Part shown: one piece after another, positions 1-63,761 of the stretch
Layout of the letters: each line of letters opens with the position of its first letter
How positions within the stretch are numbered: the first letter of the stretch is position 1
NCBI GenBank assembly: GCA_963719035.1
Contig: CAVRAO010000008.1
Span: forward strand, 128,001-192,000
Source: Methanobacteriota archaeon
GTDB taxonomy: Archaea > Halobacteriota > Bog-38 > Methanoflorentales > Methanoflorentaceae
Direction: 5' to 3'
DNA: 64,000 nucleotides
Notes under the pieces: model-generated
Told to the model about the DNA's origin: nothing
The model's database searches: none
What the model saw: only the letters and a program-made list of their open reading frames with translations
Made by a program: the position numbers and the translations under genes

Positions 1-589
1 GCTCGGTAACAAAACTGGCAAGTTCGTGATCCTGGCAAACAGAGGGCATTGCAACGTCACAGGGTTCAATCAAATCCTTAATTGGTCACATGGATTTCCA
101 TACGCCGTCGACTTCTCGACCGGGGCGCCACGTTATCAGCCGGGCGAGTACTCGTGTGTTGATGCACTTCGGCGGGGCGAAGTCGACGCGTTGTTCTGCA
201 TGTGCGCCGATCTGGCGGCTCATTTACCGAAAATAGCTGTCGAGAGGATGTGCGAGATCCCCGTAGTCTCCATAGAAACTGCGGAGGGACCACAAGCATT
301 CATTAGCGACGTCGTGCTACCAGGTGTTTTAGACGCTATGGAGTGTGAGGGCACTTTCTATCGGATGGACAACGTGCCGATCTACGCTCGAAGCTTCTGC
401 GATCCGCCATTTGACTTCACGAAGTCAAATGAAGACACGTGTACACAGTTGCGTGACGCCATTATACAGAAACTGGAAGCGCGAGAAAAGGCAAAGGAAG
501 AAGAGACGCAGGCGATGCCTCAGACGACTCCACTCACTAACGAAGAGTTTGGACAACGTTTAGATAAGCTCGTTTCCAGAGCCGTTTAA
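1..589 (+). CDS. fwdB: Formylmethanofuran dehydrogenase subunit B, C-terminal part (5' truncated by window edge)
   Basis: RGHCNVTGF...GFPYAVDFS..GAPRYQPGE and ECEGTFYRMDNVPI motifs; followed by fwdD/C. Confidence 0.93.
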   Translation, partial: LGNKTGKFVILANRGHCNVTGFNQILNWSHGFPYAVDFSTGAPRYQPGEYSCVDALRRGEVDALFCMCADLAAHLPKIAVERMCEIPVVSIETAEGPQAFISDVVLPGVLDAMECEGTFYRMDNVPIYARSFCDPPFDFTKSNEDTCTQLRDAIIQKLEAREKAKEEETQAMPQTTPLTNEEFGQRLDKLVSRAV

Positions 590-2943: not shown

Positions 2944-3142
2944 GCAGTAGCTTCTAAGCTGTGATCAGGCCTTGCGACTAAGAATTCGACATTCTTCTCT
3001 GGGGTGGCGCTAGAAACGAAATAAGTGTCATTCGTACCGTTGGTATCTTAGTCACTATTTGACCGGGCAGGAAAACCTGCGATGAACCCAGCCCGGTCGA
3101 GGTTTTTTTTTGCTTTTGCTAAGGGTTTCAGACTACTCCATC

Positions 3143-4163
3143 TCAGAACCCAAAATAGCATACGGGATACTGGCATTCTTTACAGTCCGCGCAGAAACCT
3201 CCCTCACCCAGAGGTGCGATGTCCTCTTTTTTGATCTCCAAACCTGCGAAAATTCGGGGCAGGAAAACATCGATGCTGGTAGTGGGGAAGTGCATGGAGG
3301 CTCCCGGTACACCCATCAGCATGGTACATGCCCAGATAAGCCATTGTCAGCATATTGCCCGGCTGCACGGGCACGCCCTGTGTCACCAGTCTTGCACTGC
3401 TGCTTCGGATGGCAGTGGGCGTCAGATCGTCGGGATCTACGGACATGCCGCCGGTGATTAGTATCAGCTCCGCACCTTGGTTTGCGTAATTTCTGATGGC
3501 GGCGGACAGCATATCCAAATCGTCGGGGCATTTTGTGACGCCCAGAATCTCCGCTCCATACCCCTCTAGCTTCGAACGCATGACGGGCTCGAAACTGTCC
3601 TTTATACGCCCGTAATAGACCTCGCTGCCGGTGATGATCACGGCGCTTTTCAGAGGCTTGAAAGGCTTAACAGAAAATACGGGGAAGTTTTCTTCCGCGA
3701 TTCTAACGGCCTTTTCAACATTTTCGCGTTTTGTGACCAGAGGTACTATCCTGGCGCCTGACAGCTTCTCACCCGCCCGGACACGGGTGAAGCCAGGGCG
3801 GCAGGCCACGGTATAGTGCTCCACGGAATTTATCTTTATCAGCGCCTCGCTGTTTACGAAGAATAGACCGTCTCGGTCTGCGGTTATGTGCATTTTGCCC
3901 TCGGAGGGGCCAGAATAACTAAGGCCCTCACCGCATATGGCTTCGGTTATCGCTCGGGCCGCGTCGTCTTCGTGAACCTCGTCCGCCTCCGCCTCCCAGA
4001 CAAAAACGTGAGACTTGCCGATGTCCAGCAGCGCGGGGATATCCTCTTCGGCAATCACATGGCCGCGCCTGAACTTCACCCCCGTGAAGCCGCTTTCCAA
4101 GATTGTGGTCATGTCATGGCACAGTATTTGGCCCACGGCTTCTTCAACAGGTATCCTTTTCAT
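3143..4163 (-). pseudogene. MoeA-like molybdopterin-binding protein with a +1 frameshift at ~3326
   Basis: TGGMSVDPDD and PVQPGNM motifs; the alternate frame continues GVPGASMHFPTT..GEGGFCADCKECQYPVCYFGF* to the stop at 3143. Confidence 0.85.
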
Positions 4164-4640: not shown

Positions 4641-5787
4641 ATGATAACCAAGCAGGACGTCATAGATGTGGTGAGCAAATATGATAAAAAGAATATCACA
4701 ATCGGCGTGCTCGGCTCGCATTCCGCACTAGATGTCTGTGACGGTGCCCGCGATGAAGGGATTCCCAACCTCGTCGTATGCCAAAAAGGCCGTGATAGAC
4801 TTTACACGAACTATTTTAAGAATCGGACCGTGAACGGACTGCAGAAAGGTTTCGTTGATGAGACTCTTGTACTTAACAAGTTTGATGAGATCCTCGCTGA
4901 CGGAGTGCAGCAACAACTCATTAAAAAAAATACGCTATTTATCCCCAATCGGTCTTTTGTAGTCTACAACGGCGTGCGGCGGGTCGAGAATGAGTTTAAG
5001 TTGCCACTCGTCGGCACGCGCGACATGTTGAAAATCGAAGACCGGGAGACGGAAGAAGAAAATTATTACTGGGTCAGTCAACAAGCGGGCATTCCAATCC
5101 CGAAACACTATGCGAGCAAAGACGATATAGACACGCTCGTCATGGTAAAGCTCCACCACAAGTACATGACGCTCGAGCGCGGGTTCTTCACGGCCGCGTC
5201 CCCCGAGGAGTTCGACGCAAAGGTCGAGCGCCTCCTTAAGCGCGAGATTATTACAACCGAAGCCCTCAAAGACGCCCGCATTGAACAGTATATCATAGGG
5301 CCGGTGTTCAACTTTAACTTCTTTTATTCCCCCATCGACGACGAGATTGAGCTTTTGGGGATTGACTTCAGATTCGAAAGCAACCTCGACGGATTGGTGC
5401 GCATTCCCGCTGAGCAGCAGTTAGAGCTGCCCGCACAGGTACCGTGACCCACTTATGACGATCGTTGGCCACGCTAACGCGTCGCTCAGAGAGTCCTTGC
5501 TCGAAAGAGTGTACCGTATGGCTGAGCAATTTGTAGCGTTCTCGAAGCGACACTACAGTGCCCCTATCATCGGGCCATTCTGCTTGCAGACCATCGTTGA
5601 TCAAAACATGGACTTTTACGTGTATGACATCGCGACGCGGATCGGCGGAGGCACAAACGTCCATACGAACGTCGGTGCTTCGTATGGAAATTCCCTGTTT
5701 GGAACAAGGATGAGTTCAGGACGGCGTCTCGCGCTTGAGGTCAAGCGCGCAATCGCTCTTAACGAAGTAGAGAAGATCATAACATAG
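4641..5787 (+). pseudogene. purP: PurP-family FAICAR synthetase (ATP-grasp), split by a 1-nt insertion at ~5439 (possible assembly error)
   Basis: GSHSALD, IPNRSF, ERGFF, GPFCLQT and RIGGGTN motifs; removing one G in CAGGTAC gives continuous ..PAQYRDPLMTIVGH.. Confidence 0.88.
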
Positions 5788-7204: not shown

Positions 7205-7324
7205 ACAGCGAAGCGTCGCTATTGCCGTTGCTTTTTTTGTCGACTACCCATCGACCGCTGCAAACGCGTGCTCTTTTATATTGGTGAACGCAATACTGTC
7301 CCATCTACTCCGGGGGGGGAGCGC

Positions 7325-8368
7325 GTGAACCGAGCACAAGAACTTATAGAAAACTATGATCTGAATGACCTAACGCTCGCAACTTTGTGCTCCCACACGA
7401 GCCTGCAGATTTTCCACGGCGCCCGCGCAGAGGGCTTTAAAACGCTCGGCCTCGCCGTCGGCCACATACCGAAATATTATGACGCATACCCCAAGGCCAA
7501 ACCCGACGACTTTTTAGTTGTTAGCAGCCATCTGGATGTGCTTAAGCACGCTAACGACTTGCGTGAACGGAACGTGATTCTAATCCCTCACGGATCCCTC
7601 GTTGAGTACCTCGGCGCTGACAATTTTTTAGATCTGAACGTGCCCACCTTTGGGAATCGTCGCGTGCTTCAATGGGAGTCAGACCGCGCTAAAAGCCGAC
7701 AATGGCTAGAGGGGGCAGGGGTTATCATGCCCAAAGAGATACACGATCCGCGAGAAATTCAATCCCCAGTCATCGTAAAGTATCATGGAGCTAAAGGCGG
7801 CCGAGGCTTCTTCATCGCAAAAGACTATGCTGACTTCATCAGAGGCATAGATCCGTCTGCACAATATACTATACAAGAGTTTGTTCTTGGCACGCGATTT
7901 TACTTTCACTACTTCTACTCGCCTATTGCAAAAACTGGCTACCGATTGCGCAAAGGATCCCTTGAGATGCTCGGCATTGACCGACGATTGGAGGCAAACG
8001 TCGATGAGATCTATCGAGCAGGAAGTGTTGCTGTCGAACCTACTTTTGTCGTTACAGGGAACATTCCTGTCGTGCTACGAGAGAAGCTCCTCGAAGAGGT
8101 ATTTGATATGGGGCGCCGCGTCGTCGAAAAATCGATTGATTTGTTTGACGGCATGATCGGGCCATTCTGTCTAGAAACGATCGTTACCGATGCGCTTGAA
8201 TTCAAAGTCTTTGAGGTGTCAGCCAGGCTTGTAGCCGGCACTAACCTCTATCCGACAGGGTCTCCTTACGCAGATTATGTATATGACACCATGTCGTGCG
8301 GCAGACGTATCGCGCTTGAAATACGAAATGCTTTGCAAGCAAATCAGCTCACAGACGTCCTGAGTTGA
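7325..8368 (+). CDS. purP: PurP-family ATP-grasp protein, second paralogue
   Basis: CSHTSLQIFHGARAEGF, GAKGGRGFF, GPFCLE, FEVSARLVAGTN; GTG at 7325 is the likely start. Confidence 0.9.
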   Translation: MNRAQELIENYDLNDLTLATLCSHTSLQIFHGARAEGFKTLGLAVGHIPKYYDAYPKAKPDDFLVVSSHLDVLKHANDLRERNVILIPHGSLVEYLGADNFLDLNVPTFGNRRVLQWESDRAKSRQWLEGAGVIMPKEIHDPREIQSPVIVKYHGAKGGRGFFIAKDYADFIRGIDPSAQYTIQEFVLGTRFYFHYFYSPIAKTGYRLRKGSLEMLGIDRRLEANVDEIYRAGSVAVEPTFVVTGNIPVVLREKLLEEVFDMGRRVVEKSIDLFDGMIGPFCLETIVTDALEFKVFEVSARLVAGTNLYPTGSPYADYVYDTMSCGRRIALEIRNALQANQLTDVLS

Positions 8369-8478: not shown

Positions 8479-8606
8479 GAGACGTAGCAGCGCTCCATGG
8501 TTCCCGAAGGCTCTCGCACTTCAGTACAACATGGAACGTTGACGGGCTTATCTTCCGTGTTCGGGATGGGTACGGGAGTTTCCCCGCCGCTATGGCCGCT
8601 ACGTCA
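8479..8606 (-). rRNA. rrf: 5S rRNA
   Basis: GACGTAGCGGCCATAGCGGCGGGG...CCCGTACCCATCCCGAACACGGAAGATAAGCCC; terminal helix GACGTAGC/GCTACGTC. Confidence 0.95.
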
Positions 8607-8678
8607 AGCCAAGGTCCGGATTTGAACCGGAGTGTAGTCGCTCTGCAGGCGACCGCGTAACCGCTCCGCCACCTTGGC
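8607..8678 (-). tRNA. tRNA-Cys(GCA)
   Basis: GCCAAGG acceptor stem, GTCGC-CT-GCA-GA-GCGAC anticodon arm, GTTCAAATC T-loop. Confidence 0.96.
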
Positions 8679-8785
8679 GATCGCGGGCAAACCACTGGCG
8701 CTCGTATAAAGTGCATGTTCCATAATTATACTCTCCTGAAGACAACGCTCCAAGAGGCCTGGTATACGCCTAGCTAATGTAAAGA

Positions 8786-11690
<2,905 letters not shown>

Positions 11691-11832
11691 ACTTTACATT
11701 AACTAGTTAGCGTCCAGAATTATGGAACTTATGCACGGTACACTTTGTAAAAGTGGACCCTTCCACAGCGGCGCCAGCCACTGTGTGCATTAAACTGGAA
11801 TATCTTCTTTCGCGCCCACGCGGGTCGTTAGA

Positions 11833-11905
11833 TGGACTCGCTGGGATTTGAACCCAGGGCCTCTGCCTTGCAAAGGCAGCGCTCTTCCAGCTGAGCTACG
11901 AGCCC
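11833..11905 (-). tRNA. tRNA-Ala(TGC), rRNA spacer
   Basis: GGGCTCGTAGCTCAG...CTGCC-TT-TGC-AA-GGCAG...GAGTCCA. Confidence 0.97.
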
Positions 11906-11949
11906 TAGGTGTGGAAGGTCCCTTGATTCGGCTTCCGCCTGTATTGCTT

Positions 11950-13420
<1,471 letters not shown>

Positions 13421-14929: not shown

Positions 14930-17461
14930 GTGCCGAGCACGATGAGTGAAACCGATCAAGACCAGTTCCGCGCGTGGTATAGAGAGCAAATTGAGAACTT
15001 TGAACGCGTTGCGCCGCGCTATGAAGATCTGGCAAAGGTTCTTGATGCTATCCTTACGGCGCTTGCAGAGCGATACGCACCGCTTGCAATAGTACAAACA
15101 CGACCGAAGTCACTTTCGAGCTTCGCAGAGAAGATTATTCGAAAGCGCGCTGAGGTGAGCGACCCGGTCAACGAGTTTACCGACCTCTGTGGGGGACGCG
15201 TCATCACCCACACCCAGACCGAGGTCACGTCGATCTGCAATTATATCGAGAAGCATTTTGACATCGATTGGGACAATAGCGTCAACATTGACCAACGCCT
15301 CAAGGCGACCGAGTTTGGGTACCGATCGGTCCACTACATCGTCAGCTTGCGTCCTGGTTCGTTGACGGTCGGAAGCATTTCGATTGAGATTCCAGAGACG
15401 GTCGCCCGTTTGAAGGCTGAAATACAGGTGCGCACACTCCTCGAACACGCGTGGGCTGACTTCAGCCACGATAAGAGTTACAAAAGCTCGTTTGCATTCC
15501 CGCGACAGTGGCAACGTGAACTGGCGCGGATAGCCGCGGTGCTCGAGGATGCCGATCAATCCTTTGCGACGATTGAGAACCGCCTGACAGCTTACGCTGC
15601 TAACTACAGCGCATACATGAGTGAAGCGCAGATACGAGAAGAGATGCGCACCCTCATCATGATCCTTGAACACGACCCACACAACGTCCAGCACGCGCAC
15701 CGGATTGGACGACTGGCGATGACGCTCGGCGACTGGGAGCGGGCCATCGAGACCTTTACCGCGTACGTCGATACGGGCTACCCTCCCCTCCTCAAAGATC
15801 TAGGAGTTGCACTCTGCAAGCGACACAGCGCAAAGCCCTCAAGCACACCTTATCGAGAGGGACAGCGCTTCATCGAGACTTCGCTTGCGAAAGTCCACGA
15901 CCCTGATACGCTTGTCTGTCTTGCAGATACGTGGCGTGAGAGTGATGAATGGAAGGCGCGAGAGTTATACCGTCAGGCGTTTGAGCTCGATCCCTCAGAT
16001 CCCTACGCGCTCATCAACTATCTAGAGCTCGAAATCAGCCATCGCGGAACGACCTCTGTCGTCGACGTTGTTCGCCCCTTAATGCGCATGGCAATTCGAC
16101 GATGCTGGGAACAGATCGCTGTTGGGATCAATATTCCGTGGGTATACTATGCCCTTGGAGTGCTCCATTTACTCCTCGATGAGCTTCACGATAGTCTCAT
16201 CGCTTATGCAAAGGCTATCCAAATGAGCACCGCAGAGTGGCCGATTGCAAGTGCATACCACTCTCTCGTTAAGCTGGCCTCTGTCCAGAGCGCGTTACAC
16301 GGTTACACGTGGGCGCGCACCCTCTTGCTCGTTGGATGGGCAGGGCGGTTCGACGCTGCTGAGGCACGCACATATCTCGAAAAGTTGGCCACGCCGAATA
16401 GCCGGCGAATCAAAGCGCCGGTCACCATCGTCACTGGTGGGTACGATTCTCTGAGTGAATCATATGCGACGAGCTATCAGGAGCTTATGCGTGAGGCTTT
16501 CAAGGACTATAACGGGACAATCATCTCGAGCGGTATCGACGCGGGCATTAGCCACGTCATTGGGGATGTGCAAGAGCGCTATCTCGAGCTACAAACGATT
16601 GGATTCGTTCCGAGCGTGCTTCCCCAAGGCTCTGCTCTCGATGCGCGGTACAGCGAAATCCGCCGAACGGATGATGAGGGATTCAACCCCGCTGAGCCCC
16701 TCCAATATTGGGTTGATCTTATAACATCGGGTATTTCACCCACGAGCGTCAAGCTTCTCGGCATCGATGGCGGCAGCATTGCGGGCATCGAGTATCGTCT
16801 AGCGCTCGCATTGCGCGCGAGCGTCGCCGTCGTCGCGGGAAGCGGCGAGGAAGCGGCGCGGTTGGTCCAGGACGACGAATGGCGTACGTCCGAGACGCTC
16901 ATACAACTGCCAAAAGATCCGCTTTCTGCGCAGGTGTTCATCGGTTCAACCGAACAAACGCTCCCAACGGCCATACGAGAGCACATCGCACGCGAGATCC
17001 ACGACATCTATCGCAACCGCCTCAAAATGACGCAAAGCGAGGACCCCTCGCTTGCTGATTGGGATAGGCTTGTCGAACACCTTAAAAACTCAAGCAGGGC
17101 ACAAGCGGATCATATCGCACAAAAACTAAGCGCAGCTGGCTATGGAGTCAGAAAGGCACGCGGCACGCCTGTCGTGCAGGAGTTCTCGTCTGAGGAAGTC
17201 GAGATCATGGCAGAGCTTGAGCACGGCCGGTGGAACGTGGAACGCCTGCTTGACGGGTGGAAATGGGGACCGATAAAGGACGTGGCAAATAAGATTAGCC
17301 CATATATCATACCATGGACCGGACTGCCCGAAGAGATGAAGGAGTACGATCGTGATGCGGCACGTCAGATACCGCATTTGCTTGAGGAGGTGGGCATGGA
17401 GGTCGTCCGAATGCCTACTCAGAAACGCAAACCGTCGCGGCGCAAGCCTGTTCCTGCTTAA
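14930..17461 (+). CDS. Multidomain RelA/SpoT-type nucleotidyltransferase + TPR + SLOG-like + RyR repeat protein
   Basis: RPKSLSSFAEK, DLCGGRVI, GYRSVHY, EIQVRTLLEHAWA; TPR helices ~aa 250-470; SSGIDAGIS/IDGG/VAVVAGSG; AELEHGRW..ERLLDGWKWG..KD..K.SPYIIPW..LPEEMKEYDR. Confidence 0.88.
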   Translation: MPSTMSETDQDQFRAWYREQIENFERVAPRYEDLAKVLDAILTALAERYAPLAIVQTRPKSLSSFAEKIIRKRAEVSDPVNEFTDLCGGRVITHTQTEVTSICNYIEKHFDIDWDNSVNIDQRLKATEFGYRSVHYIVSLRPGSLTVGSISIEIPETVARLKAEIQVRTLLEHAWADFSHDKSYKSSFAFPRQWQRELARIAAVLEDADQSFATIENRLTAYAANYSAYMSEAQIREEMRTLIMILEHDPHNVQHAHRIGRLAMTLGDWERAIETFTAYVDTGYPPLLKDLGVALCKRHSAKPSSTPYREGQRFIETSLAKVHDPDTLVCLADTWRESDEWKARELYRQAFELDPSDPYALINYLELEISHRGTTSVVDVVRPLMRMAIRRCWEQIAVGINIPWVYYALGVLHLLLDELHDSLIAYAKAIQMSTAEWPIASAYHSLVKLASVQSALHGYTWARTLLLVGWAGRFDAAEARTYLEKLATPNSRRIKAPVTIVTGGYDSLSESYATSYQELMREAFKDYNGTIISSGIDAGISHVIGDVQERYLELQTIGFVPSVLPQGSALDARYSEIRRTDDEGFNPAEPLQYWVDLITSGISPTSVKLLGIDGGSIAGIEYRLALALRASVAVVAGSGEEAARLVQDDEWRTSETLIQLPKDPLSAQVFIGSTEQTLPTAIREHIAREIHDIYRNRLKMTQSEDPSLADWDRLVEHLKNSSRAQADHIAQKLSAAGYGVRKARGTPVVQEFSSEEVEIMAELEHGRWNVERLLDGWKWGPIKDVANKISPYIIPWTGLPEEMKEYDRDAARQIPHLLEEVGMEVVRMPTQKRKPSRRKPVPA

Positions 17462-23066: not shown

Positions 23067-23140
23067 GGCCGAGGGCGAGATTCGAACCCGCGTCGTGGCC
23101 TCCACAGGGCCATAGGATTACCAGGCTACCCCACCTCGGC
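23067..23140 (-). tRNA. tRNA-His(GTG)
   Basis: GCCGAGG acceptor, TGGCC-CT-GTG-GA-GGCCA arm, discriminator C; position -1 encoded as A. Confidence 0.95.
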
Positions 23141-23158
23141 TCAATATATAACGTACGA

Positions 23159-23269
23159 TAGTCCCGTGCGGATTCGAACCGCAGTCGCGGGCTTTCTTCT
23201 ATCAGTGGTCAACGTTCAAGACCACGTGAATCCAAAGGCCCGCATGATTGACCACTACACCACGGGACT
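23159..23269 (-). tRNA. tRNA-Gln(TTG) with 38-nt canonical intron (23194-23231)
   Basis: AGTCCCG acceptor; CGGGC-CT-TTG-G[intron]A-GCCCG. Confidence 0.93.
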
Positions 23270-23456
23270 TCGCCCTAGGGTAAGAGTCATACATACTTAA
23301 CGTTTTGGTGGTGTCTATCGCTCATTAGAAGCGTTCATCAGCAAGGGAACGTCATTTCACAAACAATTATGACAAACCAGAGCGCTCGCTCTTCACGCAG
23401 TGTCAGCTTTCAACATTTTTTGCGCCGATGCATCGCAGCTCATTAAGATTAAAAAA

Positions 23457-23625
23457 TGGGGCTGGAGAGATTTGAACTCTCGATCGACGGGTCTCTCCGA
23501 TCAGTGCTCCAACGGGACATCACTTGGCCCAAGCGTCCCCGAGCCATCAGTTGACCCGTTGCTCATCATATCGCGAACTTCATACCGCTGGAGCCCGTCG
23601 CCATTCCAGACTAGGCCACAGCCCC
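23457..23625 (-). tRNA. tRNA-Trp(CCA) with 95-nt intron (23493-23587)
   Basis: GGGGCTG acceptor; ACGGG-CT-CCA-G[intron]A-CCCGT. Confidence 0.94.
23493..23587 (-). ncRNA. Intron-encoded box C/D guide RNA of pre-tRNA-Trp
   Basis: Box C ATGATGA, D' CTGA, C'-like GTGATG, D CTGA; guides ACGGGTC and TTGGAGC complementary to its own anticodon arm; known euryarchaeal arrangement. Confidence 0.85.
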
Positions 23626-23634
23626 ACAAATACG

Positions 23635-23741
23635 CGGGCCGGGAGGGAATTGAACCCTCGACCTTTGGGTATCTCTGGTCAACAGGTCATCAGTAAAATA
23701 CCGTAAGAGCCCAACGCTCTGCCTGACTAAGCTACCGGCCC
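23635..23741 (-). tRNA. tRNA-Lys(CTT) with 33-nt intron (23671-23703)
   Basis: GGGCCGG acceptor; TTGGG-CT-CTT-A[intron]A-CCCAA. Confidence 0.93.
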
Positions 23742-33569: not shown

Positions 33570-34265
33570 TTACTCTTCGAGCTCTTTATAACAGAACCAA
33601 AAGTCGTAATTATCATACATCTTGACACGTTCTTTGGCAGTCTTTTCGTCGGCTGGTGCAGGAATAAGGACTTTCTTCCCGATAAGCTCATTTTGAGGCC
33701 ATCCCGCGGGCATTGCGACCCCATATTTATCTGCGGTTTGGAGGGCTGTCACGGCCCTAAGTATTTCGTCCATATTTCTGCCGACTTCTTGTGGATAATA
33801 GATTATCAAACGAACGACGCTTTTAGGATCAACGATGAATACTGCGCGCACGGTATTTGACGCCTTACCCGGGTGAATCATTCCCAGCATCGAAGCGACC
33901 TTACCCGTATCAGCAATTATCGGGAACGGAATTTCAACGTCCATGTTCTGTTGGATCCACTCGGTCCACTTCATGTGCGAGATGACTTGATCAATGGACA
34001 GTCCAATGAGTTTGCAGTCTAGCTTCTTAAACTGGTCATACCGTTTGGCGAAGGCCACAAACTCGGTCGTGCACACCGGCGTAAAATCTGCAGGGTGACT
34101 GAAAAGCACGAACCACTTGCCGCTAAAAGCATCAGGCAGCGTCATCTTGCCGTGGGTCGTTTGGACTTCGATTTGCGGGAATTTGTCACCGATTAACGGC
34201 ATTCCTGGCGCAGCTGGTGCGCTTTTTGCTGCGCTCATTCCAGCGCTCGCGGTACTCGATTGCAT
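33570..34265 (-). CDS. Peroxiredoxin (Prx6/archaeal type)
   Basis: [25 protein letters not shown]-terminal WFC. Confidence 0.95.
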
Positions 34266-34889
34266 ACAATCCGATTTCAAAGCGCGCATATATATACATT
34301 ATACAAAACCGTGAGCAGCGCGAGCCAAATCATGAAGCGAAAGAAACGTTGCACCTCACTACATGCACGAGCAGCTTCCCATTTGTGTGAGAGAGATGGG
34401 GAGGAGCGACCTGTGAGAGTTATCAAACGAAAAAAAGTCTTTGAAGTGTCCGACGTGTCCGGTCGTGCAATGTTGCACGCCCTTGGAGCAATCACTACAT
34501 GTTCGGTTCGCTGCGTTCAGGATACGTTCCAACGTTTTTTTAAACAGCCCGTGCCCAAGAGCGCGCCTTCGGGCTTTTTCTTGGTCCTTTGCCCAGTCTA
34601 GCCCGCGGCTGAAGCGAAAAGAGCGTTCTTTGGCGTTAACGGCGTGCTGGTGAGTTTGTCCACGCGCACTTCTAAGGAGAGAAGCGACTCGTCGACAAGC
34701 CGAACCGTCTGGTATTGTCCGTGTCGAGCGGCGCCACTAAAAACAAGTTTAAGAAGCGCTCAATCTGGCAATTTGCGGGTAATTCACTAATTAACAGCAT
34801 CAAAACGTTTTTATACCTTAGAAAAAGATTAATTACAGCACAGATGAATAGCGAAAGCTCTTATCCGTGCTACGTAAAGGAGATGAATC

Positions 34890-35468
34890 ATGAAAAAAAT
34901 AGCCATTTCTCTATTGGTACTGGCTCTTGTGGCTGCATTTTCAGCGACGGGCGTAGTGTCAGCGGCAACCTGTGCTGCAACGACGACTGCCTGTCCATCG
35001 ACCACGAGCGCTCAGTGCACCAGCTGCGTCACGTCAACGTGCTGCTGCTGTCCGTGCCCGGTAGTAACGTGCTGTCCAGTAGTCACGACCTGTGTCGTCA
35101 CCAAGTGCTGTGAAGTCAAGACTGAAGTCAAGGCAGCAGCCTGGGTACACCCACCAATCAAGGCAGCTGCTGGCGCAGTCGCAACGGATGGCGCCGCCGC
35201 AACCACTGGCGGACAAGCTGTCAACCAACAGATCGCGCAAAGCAACACCGCCAACGCCGCCATTAACGGCGATAACAACATTGTCACCTTCAACCAAGGG
35301 AACATCGCTGGCCAAATCGCAGTTCCGGTACAAATCGACATCAAGGACATAACGATCAACCCGGCCTTGGCGTGGAACGGTGGACAGATTGGCGACCGCA
35401 CCAACAGCAATAACGAAGAAGAAGTCGTAGTCGTAGTACCACCCGCGGCACTACCCGTGGCGCCCTAA
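34890..35468 (+). CDS. Secreted Cys/Thr-rich protein, copy 1
   Basis: Signal peptide; 14 Cys in ~48 aa; Q/N/G-rich beta-strand region; SD AAGGAG. Confidence 0.85.
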   Translation: MKKIAISLLVLALVAAFSATGVVSAATCAATTTACPSTTSAQCTSCVTSTCCCCPCPVVTCCPVVTTCVVTKCCEVKTEVKAAAWVHPPIKAAAGAVATDGAAATTGGQAVNQQIAQSNTANAAINGDNNIVTFNQGNIAGQIAVPVQIDIKDITINPALAWNGGQIGDRTNSNNEEEVVVVVPPAALPVAP

Positions 35469-35489
35469 AACGTTAGTTGATTTCGATTT

Positions 35490-35520
35490 AAGCCAGGGAT
35501 AACCTGGCTTCCTTTTTTTT
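35490..35520 (+). terminator. Hairpin + poly-T terminator
   Basis: AAGCCAGG-GATAA-CCTGGCTT followed by a T-run; copy at 37670-37699. Confidence 0.8.
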
Positions 35521-35775
35521 ACTATTATTGCAGTTAGCTCTGCTTTGATGAGCAGTTGACAAGCGTTGCCGTAGCGGCTTGTGCCGTTTAACGAGAGACA
35601 TTTACGTCAGCTTTAAATGCCTGGGCGTCCAAAACCCCTTGAATTTATCTCGCCCTACGATCACGGAGGGGCACGAGCACCGCAGCAGCCTCACGTAAGA
35701 GAGGAGCTGCGTTAAAAGCGGTTAAAGGGATCTCACGCAGCGTATTAAGAAAGCGTATTAAGCCGACAAGAAGGG

Positions 35776-37074
35776 GTGAAGGGAACGTTGGAAAACCGAA
35801 CGAAAGCGCCGTACTCGGACCAACAAAAATATCCCTCACGCGGCGAAGCAAGGCTGTTCCCTAACGTTCAGTTTATTTATGAGCTTGTCTTAGCGCAGCT
35901 CGAGCTGCATTCTCTCAGTGCTGCTTTTGAGATGGATGATGAGCTTTCAGGCGTAACACTGCGCAACGCCGGAGACGATCAGCGACTAAAAAGGCGGCTC
36001 GCATATTTTCAGACGGTCAACGGAGAGCACACCGACTACTTCTACATTTCACGAAAAAATAGGACGCGATCGGTCAATCAGTATCTGACTCACTGGATCT
36101 ACCCCTACAAGGGTAAGTTCCATCCACAGATGATCAGAGCAGCGCTCAACATTATCGGAATGGAACCGGGAGAAACGGTCTTAGACCCCTTCGTCGGAAG
36201 CGGAACGACGGCACTTGAAGCGCAGTTGCTCGGTGTTAACTGCGTTGGCTTTGATGCATCGCCACTGTGCGTCCTCCAAAGCAGGGTCAAGACTGCGTCA
36301 CATGAAGCCATCAAGGAAATAAGAGACCAATGTGAAGCGCTTATGGCACTCAACCAGGCAGAAATGGCATTGGACGGAAAGGCTCTGAACCCTTTTACAT
36401 CAATTGCTGATCAAAGGGTTCAAGATTTCTTTCGATTGGCAAAGCTCGTCGCGCTGAGCGACAGCGTTCGGCGTCGAAAAGACTCATCGATGGCATTTGG
36501 CTCACGTACAAGATTAATGACGAAGTCGATTATGGATTATGATCAAATACGAACAGAACTCAAACTCTCACTGGGACGCGCAACGATCGAACAAGGGGAC
36601 GCACGCGCGCTGCTCTTACGCGATGAAAGCATCGACGGTATCATCACGTCCCCGCCTTATGCCATAGCACTTGATTATATCAAGAACGATGCTCACGCGC
36701 TTGAGGCCCTCGGACTGGACATACGTGAGATGCGCGAGCAGTTCGTCGGTTTGCGAGGTCCAATGAATGACCGGGTAGAGCTCTATGATGAGGACCTGAA
36801 GAAGAGTTTGGATGAGATGATGCGAGTGCTGAAGCCGAACAGATATGCGTTTATCGTTATCGGAAATGCCGTTTACAAGGGACGGACACTCGAATCAGTC
36901 GAGCTCATAGTCAAACATGCAAACAAGATAGGATTGCGTCTCACAAATAGGATCAACAAGACTATCTTTGGCCTCTACAACGTGATGCGAAGCGAAACAG
37001 TTTTAATCTTCAAAAAGGATAAAGACTGTAACAACACAGATGACGGGAAAAAGCCCCGCTCTGTGTTAAGTTAA
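35776..37074 (+). CDS. Amino-DNA methyltransferase (N4-C/N6-A), apparently orphan
   Basis: YPYKGKFHPQM, DPFVGSGTT (motif I), ITSPPY (motif IV); no adjacent restriction endonuclease recognised. Confidence 0.88.
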   Translation: MKGTLENRTKAPYSDQQKYPSRGEARLFPNVQFIYELVLAQLELHSLSAAFEMDDELSGVTLRNAGDDQRLKRRLAYFQTVNGEHTDYFYISRKNRTRSVNQYLTHWIYPYKGKFHPQMIRAALNIIGMEPGETVLDPFVGSGTTALEAQLLGVNCVGFDASPLCVLQSRVKTASHEAIKEIRDQCEALMALNQAEMALDGKALNPFTSIADQRVQDFFRLAKLVALSDSVRRRKDSSMAFGSRTRLMTKSIMDYDQIRTELKLSLGRATIEQGDARALLLRDESIDGIITSPPYAIALDYIKNDAHALEALGLDIREMREQFVGLRGPMNDRVELYDEDLKKSLDEMMRVLKPNRYAFIVIGNAVYKGRTLESVELIVKHANKIGLRLTNRINKTIFGLYNVMRSETVLIFKKDKDCNNTDDGKKPRSVLS

Positions 37075-37085
37075 GGAGATGAATC

Positions 37086-37646
37086 ATGATGAAGAAAATA
37101 GCCATTTCTCTATTGGTACTAGCTCTTGTGGCTGCATTTTCAGCGACGGGCGTAGTGTCAGCGGCAACCTGTGCTGCAACGACGACTGCCTGTCCATCGA
37201 CCACGAGCGCTCAGTGCACCAGCTGCGTCACGTCAACGTGCTGCTGCTGTCCGTGCCCGGTAGTAACGTGCTGTCCAGTAGTCACGACCTGTGTCGTCAC
37301 CAAGTGCTGTGAAGTCAAGACTGAAGTCAAGGCAGCAGCCTGGGTACACCCACCAATCAAGGCAGCTGCTGGCGCAGTCGCAACGGATGGCGCCGCCGCA
37401 ACCACTGGCGGACAAGCTGTCAACCAACAGATCACGCAAAGCAACACAGCCAACGTCGCCATTGACGGCGACAACAACGCTGTCGAAATCAACCAAGGGA
37501 ACATCGCTGGCCAAATCGCAGTTCCGATAAAAATCGACATCAAGGACATAACGATCAACCCGGCCTTGGCGTGGAACGGTGGACAGATTGGCGACCGCAC
37601 CGACAGCAACAACGAAGTAGAGGTCTTAGAAATCGGAGACGGCTGA
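37086..37646 (+). CDS. Secreted Cys/Thr-rich protein, copy 2
   Basis: Identical to copy 1 for ~115 aa, then divergent with a different C-terminus. Confidence 0.85.
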   Translation: MMKKIAISLLVLALVAAFSATGVVSAATCAATTTACPSTTSAQCTSCVTSTCCCCPCPVVTCCPVVTTCVVTKCCEVKTEVKAAAWVHPPIKAAAGAVATDGAAATTGGQAVNQQITQSNTANVAIDGDNNAVEINQGNIAGQIAVPIKIDIKDITINPALAWNGGQIGDRTDSNNEVEVLEIGDG

Positions 37647-37788
37647 TAAAGCGTTAGTTGAATAGATTTAAGCCAGGAATAACCTGGCTTCCTTTTTTTA
37701 TATTGTTGTAGTTAGCTCTGCTTTTGTTATCAGTTTTAAACGTTGCCGAAGCGGCTTATGCCGCTAACTATGTTAAAAAACAACAAAA

Positions 37789-37845
37789 AACGTAATGCAA
37801 AGGGAAAAAGTTTTAATCTTCAAGAAGGATGAAGAGTGCACTTAA
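37789..37845 (+). pseudogene. Duplicated 3' tip of the methyltransferase gene
   Basis: NVMQREKVLIFKKDEECT* versus NVMRSETVLIFKKDKDC at 36979-37029. Confidence 0.8.
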
Positions 37846-37863: not shown

Positions 37864-38172
37864 ATGCGAGCACTTATCGTGTACCCGTGGCAGGTGGAAG
37901 AATTTATCCAGTGGTTAGAGCCGGACGTTTCGAGATGGCCGATTGACAACGTGAAGGCAGCACTGACCAAAGTGTCCTATGAAGAGCTCATTAAGCTTCA
38001 CGTGGTTCCAGCGCTTTCCAGGTACGACGCGCTCAGATGGTTTGAAGATGGCAGGCTCGTTGGCAGTAAAAACAACGGGTCTCAAGAGATCTTAAATAAC
38101 TTTAAGGACTACCGCTTCAACGGCTTGTTCTACTCGGGTCTGTTCGACACCGAGGGCGAACCGGATTGGTGA
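37864..38172 (+). CDS. Hypothetical protein (102 aa)
   Basis: ATG-started ORF with normal composition. Confidence 0.6.
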   Translation: MRALIVYPWQVEEFIQWLEPDVSRWPIDNVKAALTKVSYEELIKLHVVPALSRYDALRWFEDGRLVGSKNNGSQEILNNFKDYRFNGLFYSGLFDTEGEPDW

Positions 38173-38224: not shown

Positions 38225-38689
38225 TTATTTCCTGAGCGTTTCTAAAGTCTGTTTGACGGCGTCAACATGACCGCCAACCTTTACTTTTCGCCACTCGTGC
38301 GCCAGCTTCCCTTGTGGAGTGATCAGAAACGTGCTACGTTCAATGCCGTAATATTCCCGTCCGTACATGCGTTTTAGTTTCCAGACGCCATATTTTTCCG
38401 CCACTTCGTGATCTTCGTCACTCAGCAGCAACACGCCAAGCTTGTGTTTTTCAGCGAATTTCTGATGACTGGCAGGCGAATCCGGGCTAATCCCGATGAC
38501 TACTGCGTTGTGCTTCGCAAAGTCTGGGAGTTGTTCGCTAAACTCTATCGCCTCTCGTGTGCAGCCACTTGTGTTATCTTTAGGGTAGAAGTAAAGAACA
38601 ATCCATTTGCCCGTAAAATCGCTTAAACATTGTTGCTTGCCTGTGCGATCGGGGAGGCAGAACAAAGGCACTTCAGAACCGATTTCCAT
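38225..38689 (-). CDS. bcp: Thioredoxin-dependent thiol peroxidase BCP/PrxQ
   Basis: YFYPKDNTSGCTREA, GISPD, ERSTFLI; SD GAGGTG before MEIG. Confidence 0.93.
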   Translation of the reverse strand: MEIGSEVPLFCLPDRTGKQQCLSDFTGKWIVLYFYPKDNTSGCTREAIEFSEQLPDFAKHNAVVIGISPDSPASHQKFAEKHKLGVLLLSDEDHEVAEKYGVWKLKRMYGREYYGIERSTFLITPQGKLAHEWRKVKVGGHVDAVKQTLETLRK

Positions 38690-39010
38690 TTTACACCTCA
38701 AAACCACTGCTCGCTCTGTTTGCGAACAACGCTTTACGCATGAATATAGGGGTATCATAACCTTCATAAGAATTACGTGCCTCCTGTCCTTTTTCAAACA
38801 GCGTAAGCATGTGTTTTAGTGTTCCGCTAACGGTTCAATCGATGCGGTGCCAAGCGTCTGAGGTAGTTTTAGCTCGTTCTAAGCGAAGGAACGACTTATA
38901 AATGTTTGTGGCAGCCTAAGACAGTCACGTTCGTATTCGACAGCATATAACTGAGCTATATATGAAAAACACTTATTGCGTTGTGACAATCGTTACAAGC
39001 GTGAAGACTT

Positions 39011-56062: not shown

Positions 56063-56090
56063 ATTTCCCAAAATGTGTATTTTCGGAAAT
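56063..56090. promoter_or_regulatory. 11-6-11 inverted repeat (dif-like candidate recombination site)
   Basis: ATTTCCCAAAA-TGTGTA-TTTTCGGAAAT, arms 10/11 complementary; abuts the integrase GTG. Confidence 0.6.
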
Positions 56091-56617
56091 GTGAAGAATA
56101 TAACCGATTATTTGGAGCGAGAGCAGGTCGATGCGATCCTTGAGGCAGCGAAGATCACAAATTTTAGAGACTATCTCCTCATCCGTGTATTGTGGCGCAC
56201 TGGTGTCCGTGTAAACGAGTTAGTCAATATCAGGCCGGGAGATATTGAGTGGAACAATCAAGTGATCAATATTATTAAAGCCAAACGTGGAAAGCAGCGA
56301 AGAGTGCTTCTTGACGAAGAAACCCTTAAAATGCTCTCCGATTATGTCTTAGCACAGAATACCCCAGAGGATCACCTATTTTCGGTCTTACAAGCAGACA
56401 AATCCGATACATTGTCAAAAAATACGGGAATACGATAGGCGTTAATATACACCCGCATATGCTAAGACATAGTTTTGCGATCCACTTGGTTCGCGGCGGC
56501 ATGGATTTGCGGCGGTTACAGCTTCTTTTAGGACATAGTAGCCTTAATATGACGCAGATTTATTTACAATTCAAAGATGATGATATTCGAGAGGTTTATC
56601 AGAAGGTAGATTTTTAG
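56091..56617 (+). pseudogene. Catalytic-domain-only tyrosine recombinase (mini-integrase), 1-nt deletion at ~56373
   Basis: TGVRVNE, KAKRGKQR; second frame HPHMLRHSFA..LLGHSSLNMTQIY. Confidence 0.88.
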
Positions 56618-62546: not shown

Positions 62547-63761
62547 TCAGAATACTTTGAAGATGAGCAGGAGCCCAAATGATACCATCAGAAGCCCGGC
62601 TATAAGCCGCATATATCGCGCTGATTTCATTCTCCATTCTTCGGCCCTGTCTGTACTCACCTTGATCGCGTAGATCGCTATGAATACGAGGATCATTGGC
62701 AAGACAAATGCAAACGAAAACAAGGCGGTGTAGAGGTTGTTCTGCATCGTAGGCATGCTGGTCAAGTATGTCGTCGAAAAGTATGTGAACGGACCGATTG
62801 TGCACGGCAAAGCGGCAATCGTTGCTATGCAGCCGAGCCCTATTATCGCAATAAAAGAGCCGGTTTTTCCGAGAGTGCTGATGCTGTGTTTGGTGAACGT
62901 TGGGATTTTGAAACTAAACCAGCGGTTATACCAGAAGAAATCCTTGATCGAAACGATCCCGACAACGAGGAGGAAGATGCCAATTGCAGTCTTTGTCAGT
63001 GCAAGGTTCGATGCGCCAATAATTCGAACAAACTGCACAACCGCAAGTGCTGTAAGGAAGAATACAACGAACACCGTGGCAATGTAAGTCACCCCGATAG
63101 CGAGAGCGCGAGAGCGCGAGCCGGTTAGGGCAATCGTCCCCATGAGGAATATGAGCACCGAAAACACACACGGGTTTATTCCACTAATTAGCCCCGTCGT
63201 GATAAAAAGAGGAAGGGGGAAGCTGCCTTGGGCGTTTGTACCGTCGTCTGTCGTTGTTGAGTTCCCTGTGGAATTGCTTGTATGAGTCGTGGGTTTAGGC
63301 GTCGGGGTTGGCACGACGTGGCCCGTGATCTGATCGCCAGGGCCGGTCGCTCCGTTCTGAACGGCCCTCGCAACTTCTGCTTGCACGTCGGAGATTGACT
63401 CCTCGCCTCCCAAGAACTTCTTTTTGCCGATGAATATGGATGGCACAGAGTCAAACGTCATATTGTATGCTGCTATAAACTTCTGAAAAAGGGTGTAATT
63501 CGCGTCATTTTGGGTTTCGATCCTATAGACGTGAAGGGTGGGGTACTGACGTTCCAGCGCCGCTATCGTCGGCGCTATAGCCTGACAGTGCGGACAATCA
63601 GTTCTATAAAATTCATACAAGTTTACAGGCCACGGAGGATATTTCGCAATTGAGGTAGTGTTTGAAAGCGATGGCGTCTGCGCTGCCACGGGACCAACGG
63701 CTGAGCTAAATAACAGTGTTATTAGCACAATCGACAGTCCGAAAATCGCTTTCTTGTGCAT
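62547..63761 (-). CDS. Secreted thioredoxin/glutaredoxin domain fused to a CcdA/DsbD-type transmembrane domain
   Basis: Signal peptide; CPHC; VP.IFIG; Thr/Pro linker; INPC and LPCT membrane cysteines. Confidence 0.88.
   Translation of the reverse strand: MHKKAIFGLSIVLITLLFSSAVGPVAAQTPSLSNTTSIAKYPPWPVNLYEFYRTDCPHCQAIAPTIAALERQYPTLHVYRIETQNDANYTLFQKFIAAYNMTFDSVPSIFIGKKKFLGGEESISDVQAEVARAVQNGATGPGDQITGHVVPTPTPKPTTHTSNSTGNSTTTDDGTNAQGSFPLPLFITTGLISGINPCVFSVLIFLMGTIALTGSRSRALAIGVTYIATVFVVFFLTALAVVQFVRIIGASNLALTKTAIGIFLLVVGIVSIKDFFWYNRWFSFKIPTFTKHSISTLGKTGSFIAIIGLGCIATIAALPCTIGPFTYFSTTYLTSMPTMQNNLYTALFSFAFVLPMILVFIAIYAIKVSTDRAEEWRMKSARYMRLIAGLLMVSFGLLLIFKVF

Follow-up and report, generated by a model that had tools for sequence, protein, structure and literature searches.

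This analysis concerns a pair of paralogous genes for exported, cysteine-rich proteins in an archaeon of the Methanoflorentaceae. The genes lie on a stretch of 64,000 nt of contig CAVRAO010000008.1 (here called the window), whose host assembly (GCA_963719035.1) comprises 2.19 Mb in 13 contigs and is 91% complete. An earlier note, made from the sequence alone, had described positions 34890-37646 as one secreted protein. According to the list of open reading frames (ORFs), this interval holds three genes on the forward strand, i.e. a first member of the family (copy 1), a methyltransferase-like gene, and a second member (copy 2) (Table 1). The features reported there are real, and all of them belong to copy 1: a signal peptide, 14 Cys within 48 residues including CCCCPC and two CC pairs, a linker, and the segment QQIAQSNTANAAINGDNNIVTFNQGNIAGQIAVPVQIDIKDITIN. 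Their assignment to a single gene does not stand, as two paralogues surround a methylase. The strong Shine-Dalgarno sequence and the terminator were likewise recognized correctly; GGAG precedes the ATG by 7 nt, and each copy is followed by a hairpin with an 8-bp stem and then a T-run. Based largely on structural models, we propose, with a probability of roughly 0.4, that the family encodes a self-associating, Cys-cross-linked, lineage-specific protein of the cell surface or matrix, which would act by an amyloid-like mechanism and belong to no known amyloid family.

Table 1. Features of the two-copy locus, its flanks, and one distant gene of the window (positions are those of the window).
Feature	Residues	Position	Strand	Description
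1-Cys peroxiredoxin		33570-34289	-	PF00578 (6e-32), 1-cysPrx_C (1e-10); conserved upstream flank
BRE/TATA-like element (BRE, B recognition element)		34802-34815	+	AAAACG TTTTTATA; about 75 nt 5' of the copy 1 ATG
5' leader		34838-34889	+	small nested hairpin whose loop is of the GNRA type; AAAGGAGATGAATC follows, its GGAG 7 nt from the ATG
Copy 1		34890-35468	+	192 aa; first member of the two-copy family
Copy 1, signal peptide	1-25	34890-34964	+	
Copy 1, Thr/Cys-rich module	26-77	34965-35120	+	
Copy 1, linker	78-104		+	Ala/Thr/Lys/Glu; sequence EVKTEVKAAAWVHPPIKAAAGAVATDGAAATTGG
Copy 1, Asn/Gln-rich beta module	105-165	35202-35384	+	
Copy 1, C-terminal end	after beta module		+	EEEVVVVVPPAALPVAP
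Terminator-like hairpin + T8		35490-35520	+	3' of copy 1; -14 kcal/mol, z -3.38
Methyltransferase-like gene		35776-37074	+	432 aa; DPFVGSGTT and SPPY motifs
Copy 2		37086-37646	+	186 aa (185 aa if the second ATG at 37089 is used)
Terminator-like hairpin + T7		37670-37699	+	3' of copy 2; -12.6 kcal/mol, z -3.51
Remnant of methylase 3' end		37789-37838	+	86% identical to 36979-37028 (50 nt, repeat D3)
Conserved neighbour, no known family		37864-38172	+	102 aa; lies 3' of the methylase in relatives (synteny)
Bcp-type peroxiredoxin (AhpC/TSA)		38225-38797	-	PF00578 (8e-40); conserved downstream flank
Trx-CcdA candidate		62550-63761	-	404 aa; exported, CPHC thioredoxin-like domain, Thr/Pro-rich linker, multi-pass membrane part

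Each protein opens with a Sec-type signal peptide, which is followed by a Thr/Cys-rich module, an Ala/Lys/Glu linker, and a module of about 60 residues rich in Asn, Gln and Thr. In copy 1 the Asn/Gln-rich stretch ends with INPALAWNGGQ. The export signal, as read from the sequence, starts with MKKIAISLLVLALVAAFSATGVVSA and contains MKK, a hydrophobic stretch and VSA; the mature protein has no membrane segment. A lipobox carries G, A or S immediately before its cysteine. Here the first Cys is preceded by T, Q, D or S (VSAATC, VSAQC, VAADC, AADSC), and neither a lipobox nor a membrane anchor nor a sorting signal was seen in the protein. The 14 Cys are found at positions 28, 35, 43, 46, 51-54, 56, 61, 62, 68, 73 and 74 (residues 28-75), amount to about 29% of the module, and form CxxC, CxC and CC motifs; at least nine of them are conserved in the family alignments. 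The composition alone (about 30% Cys; CxC, CC, CxxC) is of the metallothionein type, and a Pfam search of both copies found no match to the metallothionein families. The module may serve either metal binding or disulfide cross-linking. The pattern C-x2-C-x4-C-x2-C-P was not taken for a 4Fe-4S site, the signal being without a twin arginine. Across 32 sequences, three tail positions reach 90% conservation or more, namely Gln113, Gln117 and Gln136. Large loop insertions occur in the aligned tails of L008, L009 and P0022, and in a second sequence type N-x-S/T sequons take the place of NGGQ.

The two copies share 169 of 182 residues (93%), and at the nucleotide level they agree to 99% over the initial 300 nt (repeat D1). 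Residues 1-115 of copy 2 equal those of copy 1; eight replacements follow in the beta module, at residues 116, 123, 126, 131, 133, 134, 147 and 148, and the C-terminal tail differs. In total, the codons differ by 16 non-synonymous and 6 synonymous changes, all 16 of the former lying after residue 115.

The evidence for self-association comes from structure prediction. For the whole protein (20 sequences), AlphaFold2 (AF2) returned a mean predicted local distance difference test score (pLDDT) of 47.8, with a signal helix at residues 5-19 as the only element; for residues 96-192 (32 sequences) the mean was 62.0, with values of up to about 80 at fragment residues 21-40 and no secondary structure. 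Four copies of residues 103-177 (fragment 8-82, alignment A2) modeled together gave a complex score of 0.57, the best of three controls 0.00. Of the proteins solved as one-chain pairs, 20 of 30 reach the pass mark of this test, as does 1 of 23 among those solved as single chains. The four-copy runs agree in at least 94% of contacts, with a partner pLDDT of at least 70. In the contacts of least error, a residue meets its own counterpart in the next chain or the neighbor of that counterpart (i with i or i+/-1; among them 37-37, 44-44, 25-25, 26-26, 22-22), and these contacts fall on fragment positions 16, 21-27 and 37-44, i.e. protein residues 111, 116-122 and 132-139. The predicted interface covers fragment 10-65, or residues 105-160 of the protein, and is parallel and in register, which is the geometry of cross-beta polymers. 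Its best-defined stacked segments, AQSNTAN (116-122) and VTFNQGNI (132-139), hold two of the three conserved Gln. We count this result as moderate support for self-association of the tail, to which we give an even chance.

The multimer prediction proposed in the earlier note thus produced parallel i-to-i stacking over residues 105-160, the monomer being strandless. The note had suggested a beta-solenoid polymer subunit; an in-register stack between chains is indeed predicted for it, and what falls away is the single-chain solenoid. The tail lacks an internal repeat: its best self-alignment scores 23 against 23.0 +/- 4.6 for shuffled sequences and 143 of 300 shuffles do as well; hence the protein is not a multi-repeat beta-solenoid of the single-chain kind.

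The family is narrow in range. From 796 candidates, a word-indexed protein search retained 21 at E<=1e-3, all derived from metagenomes or metagenome-assembled genomes, two of them with uninformative names. A 20-member profile searched against 1,835,955,588 cluster representatives yielded 22 matches at E<=1e-3 (13 at <=1e-10, 6 at <=1e-30), each of which is a recognizable family member or fragment. As the earlier note had supposed worth checking, homologs do occur in the lineage: 12 of the 24 genomes of the taxonomic family, which represents the whole order, contain a match (host included), and all belong to one genus. Without the host, matches were found in 11 of 17 genomes of the window's genus and in 0 of 6 of the other (sister) genus; many of the 24 genomes are 59-88% complete, and misses are not equal to absences. 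Up to six matches occur in one genome (G019). In the host genome, the two long copies are accompanied by two short paralogues (L003, L004) and by one remnant riddled with stops. At L003 (G000:C2, about 3000-3225), an ORF enters a long run of Lys codons (poly-A) at the end of the locus, which may be an artefact of assembly or masking.

Known families offer little. Pfam and NCBIfam searches of both copies returned only sub-threshold matches, to Pectate_lyase_5 (E 0.019, copy 2) and to a bacteriocin family on the signal peptide (E 0.12-0.21). A profile search of solved structures with alignment A1 gave only E 4.9 and 8.3, and in the ESM Atlas the best score was 0.80 for the whole protein, with no usable match for residues 100-175. 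In the literature, no paper was found that joins Methanoflorens with a cysteine-rich protein; judged by title and abstract, none of the papers on Cys-rich, signal-peptide-bearing surface proteins of methanogens is about such a protein, and methanoflorens is absent among the matches listed for metaproteomes and hypothetical proteins. We consider it very probable that the family encodes a secreted, lineage-specific surface or extracellular protein.

The modular composition of the family was surveyed at 88 loci (L003-L090) with a crude ORF filter (at least 8 Cys plus the motif AQ[CS]TS), which misses at least L011. All of the 97 family ORFs obtained (86 distinct) possess the front part, i.e. the signal peptide and the Thr/Cys module up to about VVTKCCEVK. 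The tails, classified by regular expressions, are of several kinds: 44 are of the window's Asn/Gln beta type; 29 are short forms ending near (F/W)-x-P-Y; 8 carry CTSCQKTSACPTTT (CTSC type) and MKCANYPTT repeats; 7 consist of helical repeats of the type LSPEDLMKMKALLQQY; and 9 are cut or unclassified. The front part occurs in two nearly invariant versions, MKKIAISLLVLALVAAFSATGVVSAATC... and MKKVIVSLLVLAFVALAATGTVSAQC..., and each version is common to proteins whose tails are merely 40-55% identical. In L029, L030, L033, L035, L036 and L089, the Cys front is fused to three to six helical repeats LSPEDLMKMKALLQQY(G/E)GQ and a Thr/Pro/Ala-rich tail; no Pfam match was found for these fusion proteins, which in L035 and L089 occupy the same slot between peroxiredoxin and methylase.

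Front and tail differ in their mode of evolution. Nei-Gojobori counts were made on eight genes with the window's tail type (type A). In the front module, the ratio of non-synonymous to synonymous divergence (dN/dS) is 0.07-0.23 in the nine diverged pairs that have any replacement (dS 0.05-0.38). Because synonymous changes are present, the constancy of this module, which extends to the signal peptide, points to purifying selection at the protein level and not to recent gene conversion alone. In the beta tail, the six pairs formed by copy 1 (win1), copy 2 (win2), L011 and L012 have ratios of 1.19, 1.44, 2.22, 1.76, 2.68 and 2.86, values that rest on only 1.5-3 synonymous and 10.5-19 non-synonymous differences. 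Elsewhere the tail ratio is 0.96 (L013/L015) or 0.53-0.73 (three distant pairs). Synonymous divergence is uneven along the gene: in the pair win1/L012, the front module has a dS of 0.24, the linker one of 0.51 and the tail one of 0.08, a mosaic that indicates recombination between modules. The window's tail type appears to evolve fast among close relatives, possibly under positive selection.

The sequences upstream of the genes are conserved as well. Eleven upstream regions of relatives, which between them represent three tail types, share the block ATCAAAACGTTTTTATAC in nearly invariant form (alignment A3); from the archaeal consensus, we take the BRE/TATA-like element to be a promoter. The ribosome-binding region AAGGAGATGAAT(C/T)ATG is common to most loci of the window's tail type. 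A small leader hairpin, GGGC-GNRA-GCCC or, in the window, AGC-GAAA-GCT, precedes both copies (34838-34870 and 37034-37066) and is also found at L005, L006, L007, L011-L014, L031, L043, L044, L050 and L090. Of its seven predicted pairs, three have both bases changed in one or more of 14 sequences, and the consensus energy is -3.06 kcal/mol, a weak signal. In one metatranscriptome library (word share 0.08), four contigs match the locus at depths of 2-5. One of 184 nt lies on 34876-35059 with 1 mismatch, and one of 273 nt on 35168-35440 with none, spanning the part specific to copy 1. Two short ones on copy 2 have 6 and 2 mismatches, and their source may be a relative or copy 1. Taken together, the contigs support transcription of copy 1 only weakly. 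No contig of that library falls on the peroxiredoxin, methylase, 102-aa or Bcp genes, which is uninformative on their expression and permits no ranking of genes.

How did the two copies come to enclose a methylase? Their leaders are 76% identical across 59 nt (repeat D2), and the terminator with the next 45 nt or so is likewise repeated after both (D5, D6). In L013, L015 and L024, a family gene begins 29 nt past the methylase stop, and in L015 another methylase follows; in L006, two identical family genes adjoin each other. The simplest history would be a tandem duplication of about 2.2 kb, comprising a family gene and a methylase, followed by a deletion of about 1.4 kb that removed most of the second methylase. 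The deletion is suggested by the remnant of a methylase 3' end that follows copy 2. Furthermore, the methylase of the window lacks the stop codon of its relatives, GAT TAA in L013, L015 and L024 having become GAT AAA, and its ORF thus continues for 18 further codons, which reach the copy 2 leader (alignment A4).

The methylase itself matches PF01555 (N6_N4_Mtase, E 8e-20) and UPF0020 (E 4e-12); among solved structures, the best matches are tRNA m2G10 methyltransferases (1e-9), followed by N4C/N6A DNA methylases. It occurs at E<=1e-10 in 14 of the 24 genomes. In G018 it is fragmented by stops, in G009, G014 and G015 its last 65 residues or so alone are left, and one genome of the sister genus carries the methylase yet no Cys-rich family member. 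Because it is accessory, decayed or reduced in some genomes, and present without a family member, we regard it as a passenger of the duplication and not as a partner. A functional link to the Cys-rich gene, considered because the family gene starts 12 nt after the methylase stop in the window and 29 nt after it in L013, L015 and L024, was accordingly set aside. Modification of the tail's GGQ motifs by the methylase was considered and discounted, since GGQ is not conserved across the family.

The locus is syntenic with L005, L006, L007, L011 and L017. The common order is MBL-rhodanese and rhodanese genes, the 1-Cys peroxiredoxin (reverse strand), at least one family gene, the methylase, the 102-aa ORF, the Bcp peroxiredoxin (reverse strand), and a small winged-helix protein. 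The 102-aa ORF, for which no Pfam or NCBIfam match was found, is present at the loci L005, L006, L007, L017, L050, L072 and L083 of relatives. Window-type genes at L008, L009, L022, L023 and L025 have none of these neighbors, with about 4 kb or more of downstream sequence available for each. In the host genome, the short paralogue of L004 (G000:C10, 656-1770; 94 aa, the Cys module only, ending WDPYNQGWIWVS) follows a PadR-family regulator and an 86-aa Cys/His-rich protein with GCSCGC and HHGHHGHH runs. This neighborhood was rejected as a general context of short forms, L004 being the sole short-form locus with it.

As for the rest of the window, the earlier note had pointed to a Trx-CcdA disulfide-handling gene. 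A 404-aa ORF with CPHC does exist, at a distance of 25 kb; its matches are sub-threshold (22.4 bits for Pfam Thioredoxin, where the cut-off is 23.5, and 24 bits for NCBIfam DsbD, E 1e-5, where it is 330), the membrane part of the product weakly resembles the DsbD/CcdA core, and the link to the Cys-rich genes is weak. A complete archaeal rRNA operon (16S, tRNA, 23S, tRNA, 5S) occupies 8482-13420 on the reverse strand and accounts for an ORF-poor stretch with strongly negative GC skew. Four tRNA matches lie at 23067-23741 (reverse strand); some are 107-169 nt long and probably bear introns, and a C/D-box sR3 match (23499-23573) lies inside one. A DUF1246/DUF1297 gene (ATP-grasp, PurP-like) is seemingly split into ORFs of 268 and 110 aa (4641-5784 and 7268-8365, both on the forward strand) and adjoins an FAD oxidoreductase and an intact 366-aa paralogue. 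The protein of 843 aa encoded at 14930-17458 (forward strand) combines a RelA/SpoT nucleotidyltransferase region with TPR, SLOG-like and RyR domains, an architecture unusual for an archaeon. Between 56000 and 58000, the GC content is 37% compared with about 50%, and a 121-aa fragment of a tyrosine integrase (56073-56435) is found; this is probably a decayed mobile element.

According to the reading that we favor, the tail would be exported without a stable fold of its own, and its copies would assemble by parallel in-register beta stacking, with Gln113, Gln117 and Gln136 forming ladders. The Cys of the front module may then tie the assembly together, or to the envelope, through disulfide and possibly metal bridges, and the product would be a tough, fast-evolving layer of the surface or matrix. 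Whether this layer would amount to a true amyloid fibre or sheath we rather doubt on the present models. A bolder version, which we consider distinctly unlikely, presumes a functional amyloid of an unknown archaeal type: a Gln/Asn-ladder module of about 60 residues that would be exported unfolded and polymerise only with near-identical copies, while a Cys module resembling a keratin matrix would stitch it into the envelope. If true, the Cys module would be a universal 'staple' for swappable heads, and rapid change of the stacking module could tune which cells or strains co-polymerise, or the binding of viruses.

Several points weigh against a self-associating protein. Polymerisation cannot be the function of the whole family, because the front module is also joined to helical repeats and to tails that are very short. 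The support for assembly is computational throughout, and predictors are prone to set low-complexity chains side by side. The complex test was calibrated on two copies with other alignments, so that for four copies and an alignment of our own the counts given above hold roughly, and its controls were not shuffled sequences. The monomer models, low in confidence and strandless, fit disorder as well as folding on assembly. Charged residues (D150, K152, D153) lie within the predicted stack, and a stacking segment that changes this fast (the copies differ at 116, 133 and 134) is unusual for an amyloid core. Furthermore, the RNA evidence consists of four short contigs from one library in which DNA carry-over is possible.

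Some of the same observations would suit a variable surface display protein that does not polymerise, the alternative that survives best although we think it unlikely. In such a protein, the Cys/Thr front would be a stalk or anchor, and the tails would be heads exposed on it, binding partners or particles or serving in virus escape or as decoys. It would explain why one front module is combined with at least four unrelated tail types, why dN/dS exceeds 1 in the tails of close relatives while it remains at 0.07-0.23 in the front, and why the tandem copies differ in the tail only; the recombination to which the synonymous mosaic of win1/L012 points, the tolerance of big loop insertions, and the exchange of NGGQ for sequons fit it as well. 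However, the four-copy model surpasses its controls with in-register contacts, the conserved Gln positions suit ladders, and with no membrane anchor, lipobox or sorting signal in sight, anchoring would itself need cross-links.

The Cys module has also to be considered on its own. An extracellular thiol or metal protein, which would bind Ni, Co, Zn or Cu or act as a sacrificial thiol buffer within an oxidative-stress or sulfur island, seems improbable to us. The density and conservation of the cysteines agree with this idea, as does the position of the locus between 1-Cys and Bcp peroxiredoxins with rhodanese and MBL-rhodanese genes upstream; the short paralogue of L004 beside a PadR-like regulator and a small Cys/His-rich protein could be added. 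Yet synteny within one genus is weak evidence of linkage, five window-type loci are without these neighbors, and the PadR and Cys/His context is confined to one locus among the short forms. Moreover, no metallothionein family is matched, and the tails would be left unexplained. A role in ice binding was considered as well, in view of the Thr/Cys-rich composition, TxT-like strands and the coldness of peat.

More improbable still is a secreted, archaeocin-like peptide with an antagonistic or signaling role, or the precursor of a ribosomal peptide, in which the constant front would guide the processing of a variable C-terminal product. Constant N-terminal and variable C-terminal parts, many paralogues, tandem duplication, restriction to a genus, and a high content of Cys, Ser and Thr are what one would expect of such peptides. 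Here, however, the constant part is an ordinary Sec signal plus the Cys module itself; no modifying enzyme, dedicated exporter or immunity-like gene was found among 66 ORFs of the window (Pfam, E<=1e-5) or at the syntenic loci, and the sole bacteriocin-family match is that to the signal peptide.

What is new in these results is the constant Cys front with swappable tails, the opposition of a constrained front and a fast tail, and the duplication history of the locus. The lineage consists of uncultured methanogens of peat and thawing permafrost. A lineage-specific envelope protein, if it proves to be highly expressed, would offer a handle for antibodies, enrichment and cell sorting as well as a marker of strain variation. 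The combination of cross-beta stacking with dense Cys cross-links could represent a new sequence class of functional amyloid, and a constant front with exchangeable tails could lend itself to display scaffolds. Should polymerisation not occur, the genes would form an orphan surface protein family of narrow range.

A comparison with known systems begins with the curli- and chaplin-like segments claimed by the earlier note, a claim that failed. Curlin repeats follow the motif S-x5-Q-x-G-x-x-N-x-A-x3-Q in tandem copies within one chain; neither this motif nor the consensus quoted in the note occurs in the protein. PF07012 (Curlin_rpt) gave no match at E<=1 on either copy and none in the whole genome, an E. 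coli control scoring above the cut-off, and no genes like csgB, csgE, csgF or csgG are among the Pfam matches of the window. PF03777 (chaplin) likewise gave no match at E<=1 on either copy, and its only match in the genome lies on another contig, below the cut-off (E 0.085) and with a stop inside. The quoted chaplin motif GN-x-VQVPV-x-V is absent. True homology to CsgA or the chaplins, for which only a shared richness in Asn, Gln, Gly, Ala and Ile and the relaxed match GNIAGQIAVPV could be cited, is refuted at the level of sequence by the lack of profile matches, motifs and internal repeat, and its probability is close to nil.

Resemblances of design are another matter. Like the window protein, CsgA is secreted and rich in Asn, Gln and Gly, and the Gln/Asn ladders of its parallel beta stack have a predicted counterpart here; its five repeats are stacked within the chain, whereas the window protein has no repeat and its stacking is predicted between chains. 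Chaplins are small Sec-secreted proteins whose domain of about 50 residues has no stable fold alone and is thought to assemble into amyloid fibres on the surface. The Streptomyces proteins ChpA-H resemble the present family in being small and secreted, in the assembly between molecules that is predicted for it, and in having several paralogues per genome. They differ in that they have 2 Cys as compared with 14, are hydrophobic instead of Asn/Gln-rich, and in their long forms are anchored by sortase, for which no signal is seen here.

Two further likenesses are analogies. Mycoplasma Vsp and Vlp genes share with this family a conserved 5' end including the signal peptide, divergent C-terminal parts, tandem paralogues and recombination mosaics; their products, however, are lipoproteins with repeats and phase-variable promoters, and no lipobox or switch element was seen at the present locus. 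The Cys module, with CCCCPCP, CCPVVT, CPTACPTACP and about 29% Cys, resembles keratin-associated high-sulfur proteins and metallothioneins in composition; there is no homology or family match, and the window protein is exported and archaeal.

The last comparison is that with the archaeal sheath, to which the earlier note had related the protein. The sheath consists of cross-beta, amyloid-like hoops joined by disulfides, and its SH proteins possess a signal peptide, a core that AlphaFold2 models readily and that is built from two sheets, with six antiparallel strands in either, and variable cap domains; recent tandem duplications of their genes are common (PMC11576556). They are described from Methanotrichales, Methanoregulaceae, Methanospirillaceae, some Thermofilales and ANME-1, and the text does not mention Methanocell- or Methanoflorens (PMC11576556). 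The window protein has the signal peptide, as read from its sequence, and resembles the SH proteins of Methanospirillum, Methanothrix and ANME-1 in export, predicted beta assembly, cysteines, duplication and variable extra domains. Measured against these descriptions, it is set apart by a tail of about 60 residues, strandless monomer models, and predicted parallel in-register stacking in place of two antiparallel sheets. Kinship with the sheath proteins is unlikely, because some 60 residues are too few for a core of twelve strands, an argument that relies mainly on size, the models being of low confidence. Nevertheless, since the sheath as described in PMC11576556 is built of disulfide-linked cross-beta hoops, a Cys-linked beta polymer of the kind proposed here would have a precedent in strictly anaerobic methanogens.

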